The notes under the pieces: model-generated
Database searches by the model: none
Told to the model about the DNA's origin: nothing
The model's input: the letters and a program-made list of their open reading frames with translations, nothing else
Position numbers and translations under genes: made by a program
DNA from: Candidatus Berkelbacteria bacterium
GTDB lineage: Bacteria > Patescibacteriota > UBA1384 > XYA2-FULL-43-10 > 1-14-0-10-43-13
Direction of reading: 5' to 3'
NCBI GenBank assembly: GCA_037140515.1
Contig: JBAXEI010000002.1
Span: forward strand, 39,703-103,702
DNA length: 64,000 nucleotides
Shown: positions 55,460-62,072 of the stretch, in pieces
How the letters are laid out: each line of letters opens with the position of its first letter
Numbering within the stretch: the stretch's first letter is position 1

Positions 55460-55696
55460 ATGAGGGAAGAAAAATTCTGCTGTCCAAACTTAGATTGTGG
55501 CTTTACTAGCTACAATAGTGGTGAGTGTCCTGAGTGTGGAAAAGAATTGGACAAGATCAAAGGCGACGATTATGCATCTTTCAATAGCGAAACAGAAGAA
55601 GACAGTCCAGCAGAAGTAATGATGAGCGACTTCGACGATGATCCAGACGTGACGTCTTGGTATAAGGACGAAGAAGGCTCATATTCAGCCATGTAA
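55460..55696 (+). CDS. Small zinc-ribbon protein with a highly acidic C-terminus.
   Basis: CPNLDCG...CPECG 4-Cys ribbon. D/E-rich tail. Has its own promoter and terminator. Confidence 0.5.
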   Translation: MREEKFCCPNLDCGFTSYNSGECPECGKELDKIKGDDYASFNSETEEDSPAEVMMSDFDDDPDVTSWYKDEEGSYSAM

Positions 55697-55805: not shown

Positions 55806-57152
55806 ATGAAACTATACAACACGCTGTCGGCTAAAATTGAAGAATTCAAAACTATCGAGGGCAAGAAAATCCGAATGTACACATGCGGTCCAACAGTTTA
55901 TGATACCGCCCATATTGGCAATCTCCGCAAATACCTTTGCGACGATATTTTGGTGCGATTGCTCAAATTTGAAGGTTCTGAGATCAAGAGAGTAATGAAT
56001 ATTACTGATATCGATGACAAGACGATCAAGCGTGCTGAGGGCGTCAAAAAAGATTTTGATATTTTAATCAGAAAATACGAAAATCAGTTTCTTGCAGATC
56101 TAGATTCTCTAAATGTTTTACGACCAGACAAAGTAACGCGTGCGACTGAGTATGTCGAGGACATGGCGGCTTTTGTTGAGGACCTTTTGAAAAAGGGCTT
56201 TGCTTATAAAACTTCTGATGGCTCTGTATATTTCTCTCTCGAAAAGTTCCCATCTTACGGAGAGCTTTCAAAGCTGGATAAGCGCGAGATTAAGGTCGGA
56301 GCTAGAATAAATTCTGATGAATATGAGAAGGAGAATCCTTCCGACTTCGTGATCTGGAAGGCTTGGGATGAAGCTGATGGAGAGATTTTTTGGAACACTT
56401 CACTCGGCAAGGGTCGTCCAGGTTGGCACCTAGAGTGCTCGACAATGAGCATGAAGGAGCTCGGCGAAACGATCGATATTCATACTGGCGGTATTGATAA
56501 TATTTTTCCGCATCATGAAAATGAAATTGCTCAATCTGAAGCCCGAAGCGGTAAGAAGTTTGTAAACTTCTGGGTTCATAGCGAAATGTTGATGGTAGAT
56601 AGTCGCAAGATGAGCAAAAGCTTGAATAATTTTTATAAATTGGCCGACATTATCGAAAAAGGATATTCTCCAATGGACTTTCGATATTTGGTGCTTACTG
56701 CCCAATATCGTTCTAAGCTAAACTTCACCTGGGATGGTTTGGAATCTGCAAAAAACAGCCGCGCTCGTCTAGTGCGCTTGGTTCAGGAGTTCGCAAAGGC
56801 AGATAAGGGCGAAGCTAATGAAGGTTACATTGCAAAATTCAAAACATATTTGGAAAATGATATTGATCTGCCAAATGCAATCGCTGTCCTTTGGGAAGTT
56901 GCTCGCGATGAGAGTATTTTTGCTGGATCGAGATATGCAACAATGCTTAGGTTTGATGAGGTGCTTGGCTTGAAGCTTGGCGAAAAAGATGCTCTTGAAA
57001 TCCCAGCAAATATTCTAGAAATCGCAAATGAAAGAAAAGCAGCACGAGAGAACAAAGATTACGCCAAATCTGATGAATTACGGGATAAGATTGCGGCTCT
57101 TGGCTATATAATCGAAGACAAAAACAATGAGTTCACAATCTCTCCAAAATAA
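55806..57152 (+). CDS. cysS: Cysteinyl-tRNA synthetase.
   Basis: CGPTVYDTAHIGN (HIGH-class) and KMSKSLNN. Confidence 0.9.
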   Translation: MKLYNTLSAKIEEFKTIEGKKIRMYTCGPTVYDTAHIGNLRKYLCDDILVRLLKFEGSEIKRVMNITDIDDKTIKRAEGVKKDFDILIRKYENQFLADLDSLNVLRPDKVTRATEYVEDMAAFVEDLLKKGFAYKTSDGSVYFSLEKFPSYGELSKLDKREIKVGARINSDEYEKENPSDFVIWKAWDEADGEIFWNTSLGKGRPGWHLECSTMSMKELGETIDIHTGGIDNIFPHHENEIAQSEARSGKKFVNFWVHSEMLMVDSRKMSKSLNNFYKLADIIEKGYSPMDFRYLVLTAQYRSKLNFTWDGLESAKNSRARLVRLVQEFAKADKGEANEGYIAKFKTYLENDIDLPNAIAVLWEVARDESIFAGSRYATMLRFDEVLGLKLGEKDALEIPANILEIANERKAARENKDYAKSDELRDKIAALGYIIEDKNNEFTISPK

Positions 57153-58131
57153 TTTTTGGAACAAACTACATAAACCGTTTAAGGTGCTCGCACCGATGGC
57201 TGGCTATACTGACAGCGCTTTTCGGTTGCTTTGCCGCGAGCTTGGCGCTGATGTGGTTGTTTCAGAGCTAGTCTCAGCTGATGCGATTTTTCATCAATCA
57301 AAATATTGGTACAAAGATGAAAATAACACTTGGCTTTCAAAGCGCGGCAAAGATGAAACACTTGAAATGTTGAAGTTTGACGAGGCGGAACGGCCATATG
57401 TTATTCAGCTTTTTGGTAAATTTCCAGATAAGTTTGCTTTCGCCGCGAAGTGGGTGAGCGAAAATTTGAGACCCGATGGGATTGACATCAATATGGGCTG
57501 TCCAGCCAGAAAAGTCGTAAATAGCGATCATGGTGCCGCACTCCTGAAAAATCCTGAGCTAGCGGTACAAATCGTGAAAGCGGTCAAAGAAAATACCGAT
57601 TTGCCAGTTTCGGTAAAAACGCGCCTTGGTTGGGACCATGATGATCAGATACTCGAATTCGCGCCGCAATTGCTGCGTGCTGGGATCAGCGCACTGACGA
57701 TTCACGGCAGAACCTATAAAGACGCCTTCAAAGGCGCCGCTCGTTGGGACAATATTTATGAAGTCAAAAAGATGTTTGGCGATGAGCTAATCGTAATCGG
57801 TAACGGCGATATATCATCGTATGAACAATTAAGCACTTTAGCAAAAGATCCTTTTGGCGAGACAAGGCTTGACGGCTTGATGGTCGGCCGGGCCGCCTTT
57901 GGCAAGCCTTGGATCTTTTCGAAAGAAAGTATGACAAATGATGAACTGAAGATGATTATTTTGAAACAAGCACGATATATGTTAAAAATTAAGGGAGATT
58001 TCGGCATGATCGAGTTCCGAAAGCACCTTGTGAAATATATCACTGGCTTCGTAGGAGCTAAGGATCTACGAAAGAAGGCAGTGACCGTTACAAGTTTTGA
58101 AGACGTTGAGAGCCTAGTGAGCGAACTTTAG
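57127..58131 (+). CDS. dus: tRNA-dihydrouridine synthase.
   Basis: LAPMAGYTDSAFR, DINMGCPARKV and HGRT. Overlaps the cysS end by 26 nt. Confidence 0.85.
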   Translation: MSSQSLQNNFWNKLHKPFKVLAPMAGYTDSAFRLLCRELGADVVVSELVSADAIFHQSKYWYKDENNTWLSKRGKDETLEMLKFDEAERPYVIQLFGKFPDKFAFAAKWVSENLRPDGIDINMGCPARKVVNSDHGAALLKNPELAVQIVKAVKENTDLPVSVKTRLGWDHDDQILEFAPQLLRAGISALTIHGRTYKDAFKGAARWDNIYEVKKMFGDELIVIGNGDISSYEQLSTLAKDPFGETRLDGLMVGRAAFGKPWIFSKESMTNDELKMIILKQARYMLKIKGDFGMIEFRKHLVKYITGFVGAKDLRKKAVTVTSFEDVESLVSEL

Positions 58132-58141
58132 ACACGAGGTA

Positions 58142-58170
58142 TTGACATAGTTGAGGATTTGTGGTAAAAT
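58142..58170 (+). promoter_or_regulatory. Near-consensus promoter with an extended -10. It has no adjacent CDS, so it is a candidate sRNA promoter.
   Basis: TTGACA, 17-nt spacer, TGgTAAAAT. Located 11 nt after the dus stop and 520 nt upstream of the next CDS. Confidence 0.5.
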
Positions 58171-58422
58171 TGCTCTAACAAGGGGAAATTTACCCGACAT
58201 CAAAGACAATCTATAGAAGTTTGCTTGTAGCAAGGATGGGGATCGTGCTGGACAGATTGTTTATCTGTGCGTACGTCAAAAACCTTGCTTTTTTGTTTTC
58301 TTATTTCTGACTGGGATCTTGGGATATTAGGATGATAGATTTATAGATTGACCGGCAATGAAGGTCCGTTAAAAAAAGTGGATCTGGCTAAGTTAGTCTC
58401 TGTCATTTCTCACCTTTCTCCT

Positions 58423-58453
58423 GGTTAGAACTAAGCGCGCAAAACAAGCAAAT
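58423..58453 (+). repeat. 31-bp direct repeat, copy 1 (ggttagaactaagcgcgcaaaacaagcaaat).
   Basis: Exact 31/31 identity with 58520..58550. Confidence 0.8.
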
Positions 58454-58519
58454 TCATGAATAAATTTCATCGTCTGGATCCCACCTCTCAAGCCACAGGC
58501 TGGGATGACAGGAAGGGGA

Positions 58520-58550
58520 GGTTAGAACTAAGCGCGCAAAACAAGCAAAT
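58520..58550 (+). repeat. 31-bp direct repeat, copy 2.
   Basis: Exact copy. 66 bp separate the two copies. Confidence 0.8.
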
Positions 58551-58690
58551 AATTTTGATAAGAATGTGATGGTTTCATACTATTCATGCTTATCAAAATA
58601 AAACTCATGAAAATGAGTTGATAACGCAACTGACTTTGTGAATCGAAGATTTGCAAAGTAGTATCCCAAAATTTGTTTGGAGGAAATGCC

Positions 58691-59803
58691 ATGAAGCTTA
58701 TCACAACAGCTTGTCTGGTCATCTTATTACTTGTAGTGGCTCTTGCACCTGTGAGAGCTTCTGTAGCAAGTAGCATTGCAGCACCGCTGTACAACAGTAC
58801 AACGGTCCTGAATAATGCCGGGTTTAATCCGGTGGTCAAGTCCGCGGCTAGCGCCGAGAACAAGACTCCGGACGCAACATTACGTACAGGCACTTGGAGC
58901 ACGAACATCATTGTTCCGAAGTCCAGTGCAATGGCGCAGTTTAGATTTTTACTCATCGACATGAAAATTCAGGGTTTCGACCTTGGAAAATATACTGGAG
59001 TGAAAGTAAAAATCGACGACTCGATGATCAGCAAAGAGTCGATCAATCCTAATAAGTTAAAATCCGAATCAAAAAAAGGCGAAGTCTATGCAAACCCCGA
59101 AGGGGCTTACAAAGGCTCAACCCAATTTTGTAAGGGAAATTTGACACAGGGAGCTTTAACGCTTCGCGCCGACGGCGTTTTAGTTGTAGACACTAGCAAG
59201 CTGGATTTAGACCAGTACTGCTTAGAGTTTTCGCTAACTCACGAAGGCAAAGTAGTTAAAGATGATTGGCTCATCTGGATTCACATCACTAATCGTGAAA
59301 AGATGACAGACACCAATTCGTTTTACTTTACCCTTGTCAATCCTTCCAACTATCTTGACGATTACTGTCAGGCACAAGCCGGCACAAATTATCAGGATTC
59401 AGTTGGAAGACTCCAATCGGTTGCATTTTCGTCATATTATGATGAAATATTGAAACCGTATTGGAACTTGATCGATACCCCGATTTCTGCCAACTTAAAG
59501 GCAAATGCGCTTTGGCGCGATGTCAATAATGAGGCGAAGCCCCTGCAAAATACTGCTCCCGTCACAAAGGATTGTACCCATTGGGTACGACTCCAGAAGG
59601 ACGGAAAAGCGTTTAGCGGTTGGGTGAATCTGAAGGTGTCGGAAAATCAGGATGAACCTTCTTTGATCCAAGGCCCATTGATTCTTTTCAATGGTGCTAA
59701 GGTCGGTCCACAGAAAATGTGGATAAGAGAAGAAGGCAAGGATGCTTGGACGGTAAAAGTTATCGATGTCCGCCCGAATGGCGTGACCACAGTGACCCTG
59801 TAA
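58691..59803 (+). CDS. Secreted protein of unknown function (signal peptide).
   Basis: MKLITTACLVILLLVVALAPVRASVA. GGAGG RBS 7 nt upstream of the ATG at 58691 (the track starts at a TTG at 58673). GC-richer than neighbouring genes. Confidence 0.65.
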   Translation: MKLITTACLVILLLVVALAPVRASVASSIAAPLYNSTTVLNNAGFNPVVKSAASAENKTPDATLRTGTWSTNIIVPKSSAMAQFRFLLIDMKIQGFDLGKYTGVKVKIDDSMISKESINPNKLKSESKKGEVYANPEGAYKGSTQFCKGNLTQGALTLRADGVLVVDTSKLDLDQYCLEFSLTHEGKVVKDDWLIWIHITNREKMTDTNSFYFTLVNPSNYLDDYCQAQAGTNYQDSVGRLQSVAFSSYYDEILKPYWNLIDTPISANLKANALWRDVNNEAKPLQNTAPVTKDCTHWVRLQKDGKAFSGWVNLKVSENQDEPSLIQGPLILFNGAKVGPQKMWIREEGKDAWTVKVIDVRPNGVTTVTL

Positions 59804-59810
59804 GGAGGGC

Positions 59811-60725
59811 GTGATGAGTAAATTCCTAACTTTGGCCATGGCGCTACTGCTTGCAGTGGCCTCGTGGTCCGCCCGTCCCGCGGGCGAACTTCCCTTATTT
59901 GACAAAATCTGCCACACGAACCCTGTTCTTGAACGGGGTCTCGGTCCAGAAATCGTCACAAAGGGTTATTCTATCCAGGCACTTGGTCGCTATGATCGCG
60001 ATGGTAGACCGATGACTTATTATGAGTCATGGACTTCCGGACGGTCCGGCGAAGTGACCTGGTGTCGTTTCCGTGTTGGTGAAGCAGTCGAAGCAAAGAA
60101 AACAGGAGTTCGAGACATAGTTCTCGAAAAAATCCTTTTCGGCGTAGAGACCTGGGAAGCCAAACGAATCGTCCGATGTGGCAATCCTACAGCAATAACT
60201 TTCTATTTATGGAAAGTAAAACCTGTGGCAGCCTCAAAAAACGGTTTAAACGGTAAAAACGGCCGAAACGGTCATGACGGTAAACCCGGTCCAAAAGGTG
60301 ATCGTGGCGAAACCGGCCGACCAGGCCGAGATGGAGTTGACGGCAAAGATGGTGCACAAGGCGAACAAGGACCTCCAGGTCCTCCTGCCGAAGTGTATTA
60401 TCCGCCGCAAACCCCCTTACCTCCAGTTTTAACCAATGAGTCATACGCACCCGAATTTCGGGTAAACTATGGCTCAAGCGAATTTCGCCAAGGTCTTCAG
60501 ATCTTTGGCGCGATCGCGATCGTCCCAACACCTGCTCCTGGCAAGGATGGGCTGAATGGTCAAAACGGGAAAAACGGTTTAAACGGTAACAATGGCAATA
60601 ACGGCTTAAACGGCCTACCTGGCCCAGCCGGTCCTCAGGGACCCGCCGGCCCATGTGGTCCAGTTGGTCCGACATATTGCCCGCCACTGCCAATCGGCAC
60701 AACCCCGCCACAACCTAATCTTTAG
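59811..60725 (+). CDS. Secreted collagen-like (Gly-X-Y triple-helix repeat) protein.
   Basis: Signal peptide. Two Gly-X-Y tracts of roughly 17 and 14 triplets, e.g. GKPGPKGDRGETGRPGRDGVDGKDGAQGEQGPPGPP and GKDGLNGQNGKNGLNGNNGNNGLNGLPGPAGPQGPAGPCGPVGP. Pro-rich C-terminus. AGGAGGG RBS. Confidence 0.75.
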   Translation: MMSKFLTLAMALLLAVASWSARPAGELPLFDKICHTNPVLERGLGPEIVTKGYSIQALGRYDRDGRPMTYYESWTSGRSGEVTWCRFRVGEAVEAKKTGVRDIVLEKILFGVETWEAKRIVRCGNPTAITFYLWKVKPVAASKNGLNGKNGRNGHDGKPGPKGDRGETGRPGRDGVDGKDGAQGEQGPPGPPAEVYYPPQTPLPPVLTNESYAPEFRVNYGSSEFRQGLQIFGAIAIVPTPAPGKDGLNGQNGKNGLNGNNGNNGLNGLPGPAGPQGPAGPCGPVGPTYCPPLPIGTTPPQPNL

Positions 60726-60884
60726 GTTTCTGGCACAATTATCCGAGGAACACTCTCTCTAAGTGAAAGAGTGTTCCCACATCTTAAGACAATAATTGAT
60801 TTTATTGCCTTAAGTATGTGAAAATACACGTAGAAAATTTTATTATCAAAGCTACGAAAAAAACACTATTAATTAGGAGAAAAA

Positions 60885-62072
60885 ATGAACTGTACTGAAA
60901 ACAAAACCAGCACAAAGTCAAAAATCGCTATTGCGCTTTTGGCGGTCGCTGGAGTCTTAGCAGGCGTATTGGCACCATTGGCTTCGGTCAAAGCTGTTGA
61001 TACTGTCGGCCCACGTTTCAACGTCTTGCCAGATGATTACAAGACTTTGCGCGGTGGAAACAAAACAAAAAATGAGCTGTCGAGAAATGCAGTAGTAACT
61101 GGCGTTGCTGGTGATACTGTCTCTGGCTTGGTCTATTACCACAATGATGTCTTGAACACCACTGCCAATAACACCAAAGTCAAAGTAACTTTTCCTGCAC
61201 AGACAACAAATAAAAAAGCGACTGTTTCTGTAAATCTGTCTGCTGACAATGCTGAAAACATTATCAACGACACGATGGAGATTCAGTTGGATCAGGACGC
61301 AAAACTAACATTCGTCCAGGGTTCAGTTCAGTGGTTACCAAACTTCACTGATACGACTAAGCCTGCTGTTGCCCTTCCAAACGGTCAAACAGGTAACGAA
61401 ATTATCACTCCAAATGGTGTTAATCTCGGTGGTATCAACGGTTGTTGGAATTATATCGGTTATGTCTATTTCTTAGTCAAAACTGATAAAATCGACCAAA
61501 AATTACCGGCTCTGAAGATTGAGAAAACTGTTCGTGACTTTACCGTAAATGAAGCAACTTTTGTAAAAGAGAATGAAGCCAAACCAGGCGATGTTCTTGA
61601 ATACAAGATCAGCTATTCAAATACAGGTGAAGGCCCAGCTGCAAACGTAACTGTAAGTGACGTTTTGCCAGCAAATGTAACATATCTTGCCAACACAACT
61701 GTTCTAAACGACGGTACTGGTGAGAAAATGGTTGCAGATGGTATCGCTCAAAGTGGTATCAGCCTTGGCGCAATTGCCAACGGCACTTCGGGCTATGTAA
61801 AGTTCAAAGCCCAAATCAGTTCTACTGTTGCTGCGGATCAAACATTGACGAATACTGGTTATCTTCTGTTCAACAAGCAAAACTTGTCTGATACAGCGAA
61901 AACCAAAATCGTAGTCAGTGTGATCGTCACTCCGGGTCAGCCTGGTGCTGGCAATCCATTGCCTCAGACTGGTGCAGAGACTTATATCATCACTGCGTTA
62001 ATCGTAGCTGCTGGATATGTCACTGCTAAATATCTGAAAAAAAGAAAAGAACTCGCAGAGTTGATCAAATAA
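60885..62072 (+). CDS. Cell-wall-anchored surface protein with a DUF11 repeat domain and a C-terminal LPQTG sortase sorting signal.
   Basis: Signal peptide. DUF11-like region GDVLEYKISYSNTGEGPAANVTVSDVLPANVTYL. C-terminal LPQTGAETYIITALIVAAGYVTAKYLKKRKEL, read as LPxTG plus a hydrophobic stretch plus a positively charged tail. Confidence 0.8.
   Translation: MNCTENKTSTKSKIAIALLAVAGVLAGVLAPLASVKAVDTVGPRFNVLPDDYKTLRGGNKTKNELSRNAVVTGVAGDTVSGLVYYHNDVLNTTANNTKVKVTFPAQTTNKKATVSVNLSADNAENIINDTMEIQLDQDAKLTFVQGSVQWLPNFTDTTKPAVALPNGQTGNEIITPNGVNLGGINGCWNYIGYVYFLVKTDKIDQKLPALKIEKTVRDFTVNEATFVKENEAKPGDVLEYKISYSNTGEGPAANVTVSDVLPANVTYLANTTVLNDGTGEKMVADGIAQSGISLGAIANGTSGYVKFKAQISSTVAADQTLTNTGYLLFNKQNLSDTAKTKIVVSVIVTPGQPGAGNPLPQTGAETYIITALIVAAGYVTAKYLKKRKELAELIK

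Follow-up and report, generated by a model that had tools for sequence, protein, structure and literature searches.

A long covarying hairpin RNA in the probable 5′ leader of a surface-protein operon of Berkelbacteria-like Patescibacteria

The 64,000 nt stretch analysed here (the window) is part of contig JBAXEI010000002.1 of a Candidatus Berkelbacteria bacterium and carries the genes nusG, rplK, mfd-like, dprA, topA, recR, cysS, dus and prfB. Relatives of its Dus protein place the window in the Patescibacteria (Candidate Phyla Radiation, CPR), with Candidatus Berkelbacteria metagenome-assembled genomes (MAGs) as the nearest named genomes and best Dus identities of 53–66%. The source contig belongs to a JGI lake metagenome (Ga0194054_10000411). 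The taxon labels of many MAGs are unreliable, and most of the related loci (given L numbers below) are short fragments rather than whole genomes. Between dus and an operon of three genes for cell-surface proteins lies an interval (58132–58690) which, by open reading frame (ORF) listing, wholly contains no ORF of at least 40 amino acids. It carries a promoter, P1, followed by a long rod-shaped hairpin RNA (the rod), a new and strongly constrained RNA structure with a known strand and a fixed genomic position. The interval is read here, with moderate confidence, as the promoter and structured 5′ leader (about 510 nt) of the three-gene operon. The main features are as follows.

58142–58170, + strand: promoter P1, with -35 TTGACA (58142–58147), a 17-nt spacer and the extended -10 element TGgTAAAAT (58162–58170)
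58177–58228, + strand: start of the leader, variable between relatives, with a start predicted from the promoter at about 58177
58229–58300, + strand: hairpin A (GCAAGG...CCTTGC, about 58229–58288, containing AAGGATGGGGATC) and then the U-run TTTTTTGTTTTC (58289–58300), a predicted, terminator-like fold
58291–58444, + strand: the rod-shaped hairpin RNA, 155 nt, with 51 bp in 6 coaxial helices (covariance model score 135.5 bits)
58293–58316 paired with 58419–58442, + strand: basal helix of the rod, 24 consecutive consensus pairs
58368–58379, + strand: apical loop of the rod, 12 nt and A-rich, consensus CUUAAAAAAUGU
58423–58453, + strand: 31-mer copy 1, made up of the basal helix's 3′ strand and a tail of 9–11 nt
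58454–58519, + strand: 66-nt spacer with a small hairpin (ATCCCA...TGGGAT), a predicted fold
58520–58550, + strand: 31-mer copy 2, a sublineage-specific duplicate of the rod 3′ arm
58691–59803, + strand: first operon gene, for a 370-amino-acid secreted protein without a known domain
59811–60725, + strand: gene for a collagen-repeat protein
60885–62072, + strand: gene for a DUF11/CLIPPER protein ending in LPQTG and a membrane anchor

A first-pass annotation, made from the letters of the window, had listed a promoter, a hairpin with a T-run, two exact 31-mers, a small ORF and a bulged hairpin in this interval, and all of these are present in the sequence.

The 514 nt between the predicted transcription start and the first operon gene (58177–58690) fold far more stably than their shuffled versions (z = -5.5). 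When the intergenic region was compared with 80 Dus-linked loci by blastn and nhmmer, only its positions 150–320 (58285–58450) were conserved, in 15 of the loci, at 68–77% nucleotide identity and always on the same strand. This block begins within the T-run and ends within the first 31-mer. RNAalifold, applied to a MAFFT alignment of the 15 sequences, returned one long hairpin of 51 pairs, 31 of which show compensatory changes. Across 54 loci (44 distinct sequences), 94.6% of the alignment cells are paired and 37 of the 51 pairs change on both sides. The covariation score over the 44 distinct sequences is 0.545, against at most 0.174 for slid controls; none of 500 shuffles reached the observed values, and slid partner columns were only 38–57% paired. 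The alignment of the 54 matches was fitted to the model, and the independent MAFFT and RNAalifold alignment gave the same structure.

The consensus basal helix is 94.9% paired, with 18 covarying pairs, while the window's own helix has four mismatches (three U-C in the GCGCGC segment and one at 58304/58431). It includes a near-invariant 8-bp block with three fixed G-U wobbles (58309–58316/58419–58426), and the GGG/CCC pairs that flank this block are invariant. The internal loops of the rod are small and one-sided, the largest being about 9 × 2 and 7 × 2 nt. Several G-U pairs never vary, and matches on the opposite strand reach only 24–28 bits in relatives (89–154 bits on the + strand), so the RNA is read from the + strand. 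Positions 58312–58333 of the 5′ arm consist of three tandem G-rich octamers (TGGGATCT TGGGATAT TAGGAT; period 8, 2.8 copies) that pair with the pyrimidine-rich 3′ arm TCTCACCTTTCTCC, a sequence that we take to resemble the 3′ end of 16S rRNA.

Among the genome loci, the covariance model recognised 16 strong members and two weaker ones. A context-free pattern scan of metagenome contigs gave 44 loci, 37 of them true members at 89–149 bits, and these have the same type of downstream gene wherever the flanking sequence suffices. The loci near dus in a wider set of CPR lineages, Magasanikbacteria and Uhrbacteria included, were searched with a second covariance model made from 54 sequences, which added no members; its only matches were L027 (80.8 bits) and the marginal L036 (21.4 bits). 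L027 (5609–6065) is the most divergent member of the family, at 52–81 bits. The E-values (expectation values) come from a short calibration and are rough. The motif pattern had no matches in viral contigs, and the rod is spread through one Berkelbacteria-like clade of Patescibacteria. Rfam 15 gave no matches at gathering thresholds over the whole 64-kb window and, with E up to 10 (57900–58900), nothing over the rod beyond its first 8 nt, which are touched by a chance match to mir-2060 (E = 0.13; 58226–58298). Searches of the literature on structured and noncoding RNAs of Patescibacteria, and on 'Berkelbacteria', showed no RNA particular to these bacteria and no description of the rod.

Pairing of the flanks that would extend the basal helix, or that would join 58218–58227 to the tail of the 31-mer, was considered and rejected (median z 0.15, window z 0.42). 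Significant complementarity between the rod flanks was confined to L102 and L091 (z -5.3 and -3.7), where complementary repeats on both sides of the rod lengthen the basal helix, an arrangement that is not family-wide. Tandem repeats of period 7–11 (TGAATAA, TTACGAA, AATTTAT, AATAAGC, AATTTTTATTC) start at the 3′ end of the rod in several lineages; they lie directly 3′ of it in L014, L015, L016, L092, L102, L109 and L110, and also 5′ of it in L102 and L091.

P1 matches 11 of the 12 consensus positions and has the upstream TG. It is the sole match in the window to TTGACA-N14-16-TGNTANNNT, but chance alone would give 0.15 such matches, so that the pattern match on its own is only suggestive. TTGACA-17-TGnTAnnnT is found 56–250 nt upstream of the rod in all 43 relatives with enough upstream sequence. 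The near-consensus promoter proposed in the first-pass annotation is borne out by the close match and this positional conservation. Between the -10 element and the rod, relatives have 42 to 224 nt of poorly conserved sequence; no part of the interval is less conserved than that which reaches from the promoter to the T-run. The -35 hexamer lies inside the palindrome TTGACAnnGTCAA in about 16 of the 43 relatives (those listed are L003, L004, L005, L013, L082, L086, L094, L096, L101–L103, L109, L116 and L125). The corresponding region (58142–58156 in the window) reads TTGACATAGTTGGTCAA in L089, and the second half-site has been lost in the window. The palindrome may be an operator overlapping the promoter.

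At the position of hairpin A, a short hairpin with a GGA(N)GGGA motif and a U-run is present in many relatives, 14 of which pass a strict terminator scan there; a separate terminator scan of the window did not list the site, and the U-run is missing in L012 and L107. The U-run is also the 5′ strand of the 24-bp basal helix of the rod, paired and covarying with the downstream 3′ strand, which implies that at least some transcripts read past it. Within this strand (columns 3–8), U is favoured beyond what pairing needs. The T-run had been taken as the end of a small RNA (sRNA) of about 120 nt. The hairpin and T-run exist, and a structured noncoding RNA is encoded here, but the T-run is half of a larger conserved helix and the 120-nt species is not a conserved entity. 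Hairpin A with its U-run may nevertheless be a real attenuator, which would be compatible with a leader and would partly rescue the short-RNA idea. Two other roles for hairpin A, as a carrier of CsrA-type GGA sites or of ANTAR-type dual hexaloops, were rejected: the loops are of 4–7 nt and most GGA triplets lie inside helices.

The two 31-mers are exact and lie where the first-pass annotation placed them, and the window has no third copy with up to three mismatches; none would be expected by chance. Of 38 family members tested, 35 lack a significant downstream repeat of the 3′ arm; the window and L089 have one, and L088 has a weaker one. L128 carries a head-to-tail array of a 61-nt unit (3.4 copies, 99% matches, identical spacers), each unit consisting of the arm sequence followed by a small hairpin; at the position of the window's spacer, L088, L089 and L128 all have a hairpin, of different sequence. 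L089 has two copies sharing GGAAATAAGCACACAAA, while the two copies of L088 have diverged, the first retaining the family-typical AAGAAAGCAAAA, which pairs fully with the U-run. Repeat number and unit length thus vary between strains, and the copies are uniform within a genome and different between genomes (GCGCGC in the window, GCACAC in L089, GTACAC in L128). The window's copy 1 has the same GCGCGC as copy 2, which puts the three U-C mismatches into the helix, and this weakening points to homogenisation rather than selection for pairing. The pattern is the signature of a tandem repeat that arose in this sublineage and is expanded, contracted and homogenised by recombination. The 5′ arm is predicted to pair with copy 2 at -21.7 kcal/mol, compared with -29.5 kcal/mol for copy 1, and in this folding model the repeat could influence the rod through alternative pairing. 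L126 has a first operon protein 91% identical to that of the window, together with a leader repeat of the L128 type (GGAAATAAGTACACAAAACATTT) that is unlike the window 31-mer; these sequences suggest recombination between strains within the leader.

The remaining features between the rod and the first gene are listed below.

58552–58599, + strand: inverted repeat ATTTTGATAAGAATG / CATGCTTATCAAAAT, kept in L088, L089, L126 and L128
58555–58583, + strand: promoter-like site TTGATA-17-TACTAT, matching 9 of 12 positions and overlapping the inverted repeat
58590–58624, + strand: bulged hairpin TTATCAAAATAAAACTCAT-GAAA-ATGAGTTGATAA, conserved only in close relatives
58633–58659, + strand: last leader hairpin (ACTTTG...CAAAGT), a predicted fold
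58679–58683, + strand: Shine-Dalgarno sequence GGAGG

The promoter-like site at 58555–58583 is kept in the five closest relatives, its -35 element being TTGATA or TTGGCA (each 5/6), and may be a second promoter of the operon in the window's sublineage. The bulged hairpin reported in the first-pass annotation was found at 58590–58624. The 5′ arm of this hairpin and the preceding inverted repeat's 3′ arm have TTATCAAAAT in common, so that the outer stems of the two structures are mutually exclusive. Over the family, promoter-like sites occur between rod and gene in 5 of 37 loci and terminator-like sites in 5 of 37, none of the latter at the 3′ end of the rod. L027 has a second full consensus promoter (TTGACA...TGGTAATAT) in this position, and its rod may be transcribed separately. 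No second family-wide domain was found near the start codon, where similarity is limited to sub-clades, and a strong Shine-Dalgarno sequence precedes the downstream gene in nearly all relatives.

A gene for a protein with a signal peptide follows the rod on the same strand in every relative with enough sequence. The gap from rod to gene is 72–435 nt in most and about 500–930 nt in L090, L091 and L016. A second secreted protein (collagen-like in some) comes next, and then a DUF11/CLIPPER protein in most genome loci, the DUF11 gene lying 2.5–3 kb downstream in most relatives. In L014, L015, L017 and L019 an extra gene separates dus from the rod and the secreted-protein gene still follows; because the rod stays with the operon when dus is separated, it is linked to the operon and not to dus. 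The first operon protein is 60% identical in L089, whose leader is 88% identical at the nucleotide level, and more generally is 60–61% identical in strains with leaders 88–97% identical. Its rapid sequence divergence fits a surface protein under diversifying selection. The 370-amino-acid protein has no sequence match in Pfam, NCBIfam or PDB; a word-indexed search gave 5 homologues and an exhaustive profile search of 1.84 billion representative proteins gave 11, and its AlphaFold model is unusable (mean predicted local distance difference test score 37.7). At the other side of the interval, cysS and dus overlap by 26 nt (57127–57152). Between recR and cysS there is a 78-amino-acid acidic ORF (55460–55696, + strand) with two CxxC pairs, zinc-ribbon-like, which has kept its synteny in many relatives and has no match in Pfam or NCBIfam.

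Two readings under which the interval would hold something other than an RNA of the operon can be set aside with some assurance. That it is a gene for a small hydrophobic peptide is extremely unlikely. Three candidate ORFs do exist, but none has its start codon and frame kept in relatives. The 24-codon ORF on the + strand (MGIVLDRLFICAYVKNLAFLFSYF), which overlaps hairpin A and the basal helix and is not a gene, lies at 58236–58310 (58221–58310 if extended to a TTG), 8 nt away from the position given for it in the first-pass annotation (58244–58318); the 24-amino-acid peptide proposed there is contradicted by L089, the closest relative covering the segment and 88% identical across the region, where the ATG is AAG. 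A 21-amino-acid ORF on the minus strand (58341–58406) has a Shine-Dalgarno-like GGAGAAAGGTGAG upstream, but its start, CAT when read on the + strand, is replaced by CAC, TAC or CGT in relatives, and the region evolves through compensatory base-pair changes and indels of 1–5 nt. The frame of a 54-amino-acid gene call on the minus strand (58528–58692) is broken by indels of 1–2 nt in L088, L089, L126 and L128. Equally hard to sustain is the idea that the direct repeats are a remnant attachment (att) site at the 3′ end of an RNA gene, with the GC-rich genes as an inserted island. Like att sites in tRNA and transfer-messenger RNA (tmRNA) genes, copy 1 does overlap a structured RNA at its 3′ end, and the GC-shifted block noted in the first-pass annotation is real (GC about 0.50–0.55 at 59500–60750). 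However, the rise falls on the collagen-repeat gene, just 66 nt lie between the repeats, no copy is present at the distal end of the block, the L128 repeats are arranged head to tail with identical spacers, and viral contigs do not contain the motif. The order dus, RNA, secreted protein, second secreted protein, DUF11 is kept across relatives with Dus identities of 53–66%, the GC-rich genes included, which tells against the integration junction that had been suggested. In several relatives, among them L003, L011, L013 and L015, long ORFs crowd both strands downstream of the rod, suggesting that GC is high there as well; this, with the conserved gene order, argues against recent transfer. An array resembling clustered regularly interspaced short palindromic repeats was also rejected, since the spacers of L128 do not differ among themselves, only two copies are present in the window and the neighbours are surface-protein genes.

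The other rivals concern the nature of the RNA itself. A diverged housekeeping RNA, 6S or signal recognition particle (SRP) RNA, missed by the Rfam models would agree with the rod-like shape, the strong promoter and the length of about 155 nt; it is nonetheless very improbable, given the lack of any Rfam match over the rod even at E up to 10, of the large two-sided central bubble of 6S RNA and of the GNRA tetraloop and domain IV motif of SRP RNA, and given the restriction to one clade and one operon. ARAGORN found no tRNA or tmRNA in the 64-kb window, and cmscan detected no known housekeeping RNA in the interval; the detection of such an RNA is what the first-pass annotation had said would undo its proposal. 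That proposal, an sRNA of about 120 nt ending at the hairpin and T-run with the rest serving as operator repeats, is itself unlikely. It draws on the terminator-like form of hairpin A and the U-run here and in at least 14 relatives, and on the preference for U in the basal-helix 5′ strand, which is compatible with a second role as terminator tail. It is opposed by the poor conservation and variable length (42–224 nt) of the part in question, by the loci that have no U-run, and by the rod, which begins in the T-run without a promoter of its own and hence requires read-through. The 31-mers do not behave as an operator pair: copy 1 is the arm of an RNA helix, copy 2 is confined to the sublineage (nearly all relatives have no repeat), both lie 250–380 nt downstream of the promoter, and the half-site that had been pointed out, TTAG-AA-CTAA, is a palindrome of only 4+4 nt and not a convincing one. 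A possible though doubtful alternative is that the rod is an independent, abundant noncoding RNA, primary or excised, which acts in trans or in an RNA-protein particle and is merely syntenic with a surface-protein operon that has its own promoter. Several observations favour this and by the same token weigh against a leader. P1 is the only instance of the full consensus promoter pattern in the window, and such promoters are also typical of stable-RNA genes; the promoter-like site at 58555–58583 is conserved in the sublineage, and L027 has its full consensus promoter between rod and gene; the distance between rod and gene is large and differs widely among loci (72 to about 930 nt, the latter in L016), and its upper end is long for a leader. 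The invariant 8-bp block with its fixed G-U pairs, the conserved internal loops and the A-rich apical loop suggest a specific protein partner. On the other side, no member has a terminator after the rod, 32 of 37 relatives have no promoter-like site between rod and gene, the rod is never found away from the operon, even in the context-free scan, and its confinement to one clade is unlike that of housekeeping RNAs.

The structured leader of the surface-protein operon is therefore the reading preferred here. The rod keeps its orientation and its position between the promoter and the same class of gene, as would be expected of a leader element. The sequences would fit a single transcription unit, with a promoter in 43 of 43 relatives and few promoter-like or terminator-like sites in the gap (5 of 37 in each case), and since the 5′ strand of the rod abuts hairpin A, no space is left for a promoter of the rod's own. 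The missing promoter between rod and gene counts for little, since most window genes evidently use promoters that go unrecognised. Further points stand against a leader in addition to those above: hairpin A with its U-run is a textbook intrinsic terminator in many relatives, much transcription might stop there before the rod, and the RNase III signature motif was not found within the 64-kb window.

The data establish the structure and conservation of the rod, its strand, its linkage in the genome and the variation of the repeats; we infer the boundaries of the transcript, the action of the rod in cis and the involvement of RNase III or another protein. Transcription would start about 7 nt after the extended -10 element of P1, and the transcript would pass the terminator-like hairpin A and U-run and then the rod before entering the gene at 58691. 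The rod would be a double-stranded RNA element acting in cis on the mRNA of the operon. Because the 24-bp continuous helix is stacked on further helices, recognition by a factor specific for double-stranded RNA appears plausible; such a factor, most plausibly RNase III or the like, would bind or cut the rod, and this would set the 5′ end, stability and translation of the mRNA. The consensus basal helix provides the roughly 20 bp or more of near-continuous double-stranded RNA that an RNase III substrate needs, while the window's helix is interrupted, and RNase III in particular remains a tentative choice, on the unlikely side. The invariant, wobble-rich 8-bp block may be a sequence-specific recognition site, and extra copies of the 3′ arm may serve as alternative pairing partners that could modulate processing. 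More speculative still, and improbable as it stands, is that the number of 3′-arm copies acts as a contingency switch that varies the expression of attachment proteins, or that an excised rod is a clade-specific protein-binding RNA. In the former case, unequal recombination would change the number of 3′-arm copies and alter the folding or processing of the leader, and the expression of fast-evolving attachment proteins would then vary between sister strains of an ultra-small episymbiont.

Patescibacteria depend on surface contact with their hosts and have compact genomes. In such a genome, 560 nt of noncoding sequence whose conservation exceeds that of the adjacent proteins indicate that the interval is under strong selection. 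The rod is a well-supported RNA family (44 distinct sequences, 37 covarying pairs), suitable for deposit in Rfam, and it marks an envelope operon that is probably the one most strongly transcribed in the clade. It offers a testable connection between the structure of a leader RNA, variation in tandem repeats and the expression of surface proteins that diverge rapidly. The locus also offers a caution, in that a hairpin and T-run after a strong promoter were read as an sRNA terminator although the T-run is half of a larger helix.

Known leaders offer partial parallels. In Haemophilus influenzae, RNase III cuts a long hairpin in the 5′ untranslated region (UTR) of hmw1A, raising the expression of the HMW1A adhesin, and this cleavage is coupled to variation in repeat number (PMC12721329). 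The rod is similar in being a long hairpin in the probable leader of a surface-protein gene, in the pairing of a G-rich with a pyrimidine-rich arm, and in the tandem repeats, of strain-variable number, in or next to one arm. The organisms are unrelated and there is no sequence homology. In hmw1A the arm is formed by 7-nt repeats, whereas the rod is non-repetitive and, within one sublineage, a unit of 61–97 nt duplicates only its 3′ arm; certain other lineages have heptamer repeats on the flanks of the rod, for which both RNase III cleavage and phase variation are hypothetical. In Staphylococcus aureus, cleavage by RNase III in the 5′ UTR of cspA stabilises the mRNA and activates translation (PMC3386247). 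That leader and the present one would share a long 5′-UTR hairpin in a highly expressed gene, and processing of the cspA leader yields a stabler and better translated mRNA, but the cspA leader is 113 nt long, with a much shorter hairpin, no invariant G-U rod and no repeats. The slpA gene for the surface-layer protein of Lactobacillus acidophilus also combines a strong promoter with a structured 5′ leader before an abundant envelope protein; its leader is about 100–200 nt, with no reported clade-wide covarying structure, unlike that of the rod. Such untranslated leaders of surface-layer genes have a stabilising role. The slpA example is listed, as Narita et al. (2006), among the references of PMC3666127.

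Among free-standing RNAs, 6S RNA is likewise rod-like and about 150–200 nt long, and the rod, too, follows a strong promoter. It differs in having no large central bubble and no match to Rfam 6S models (E up to 10), in not being a free-standing gene with a terminator of its own, and in being clade-restricted. Bacterial SRP RNA was rejected, the apical loop of the rod being A-rich, 12 nt long and without GNRA, and no SRP model matching. The rod is also like the orphan leader motifs of the kind found with CMfinder, which are likewise defined by covariation and stand upstream of a consistent class of gene; where those motifs form multi-stem junctions or pseudoknots, the rod is a pure rod, unusually long and absent from Rfam 15. 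It is a new RNA family of a known kind, a structured leader or orphan noncoding RNA motif matched by no Rfam 15 family, and what makes it unusual is the combination of a long pure rod with the duplication of one of its arms.

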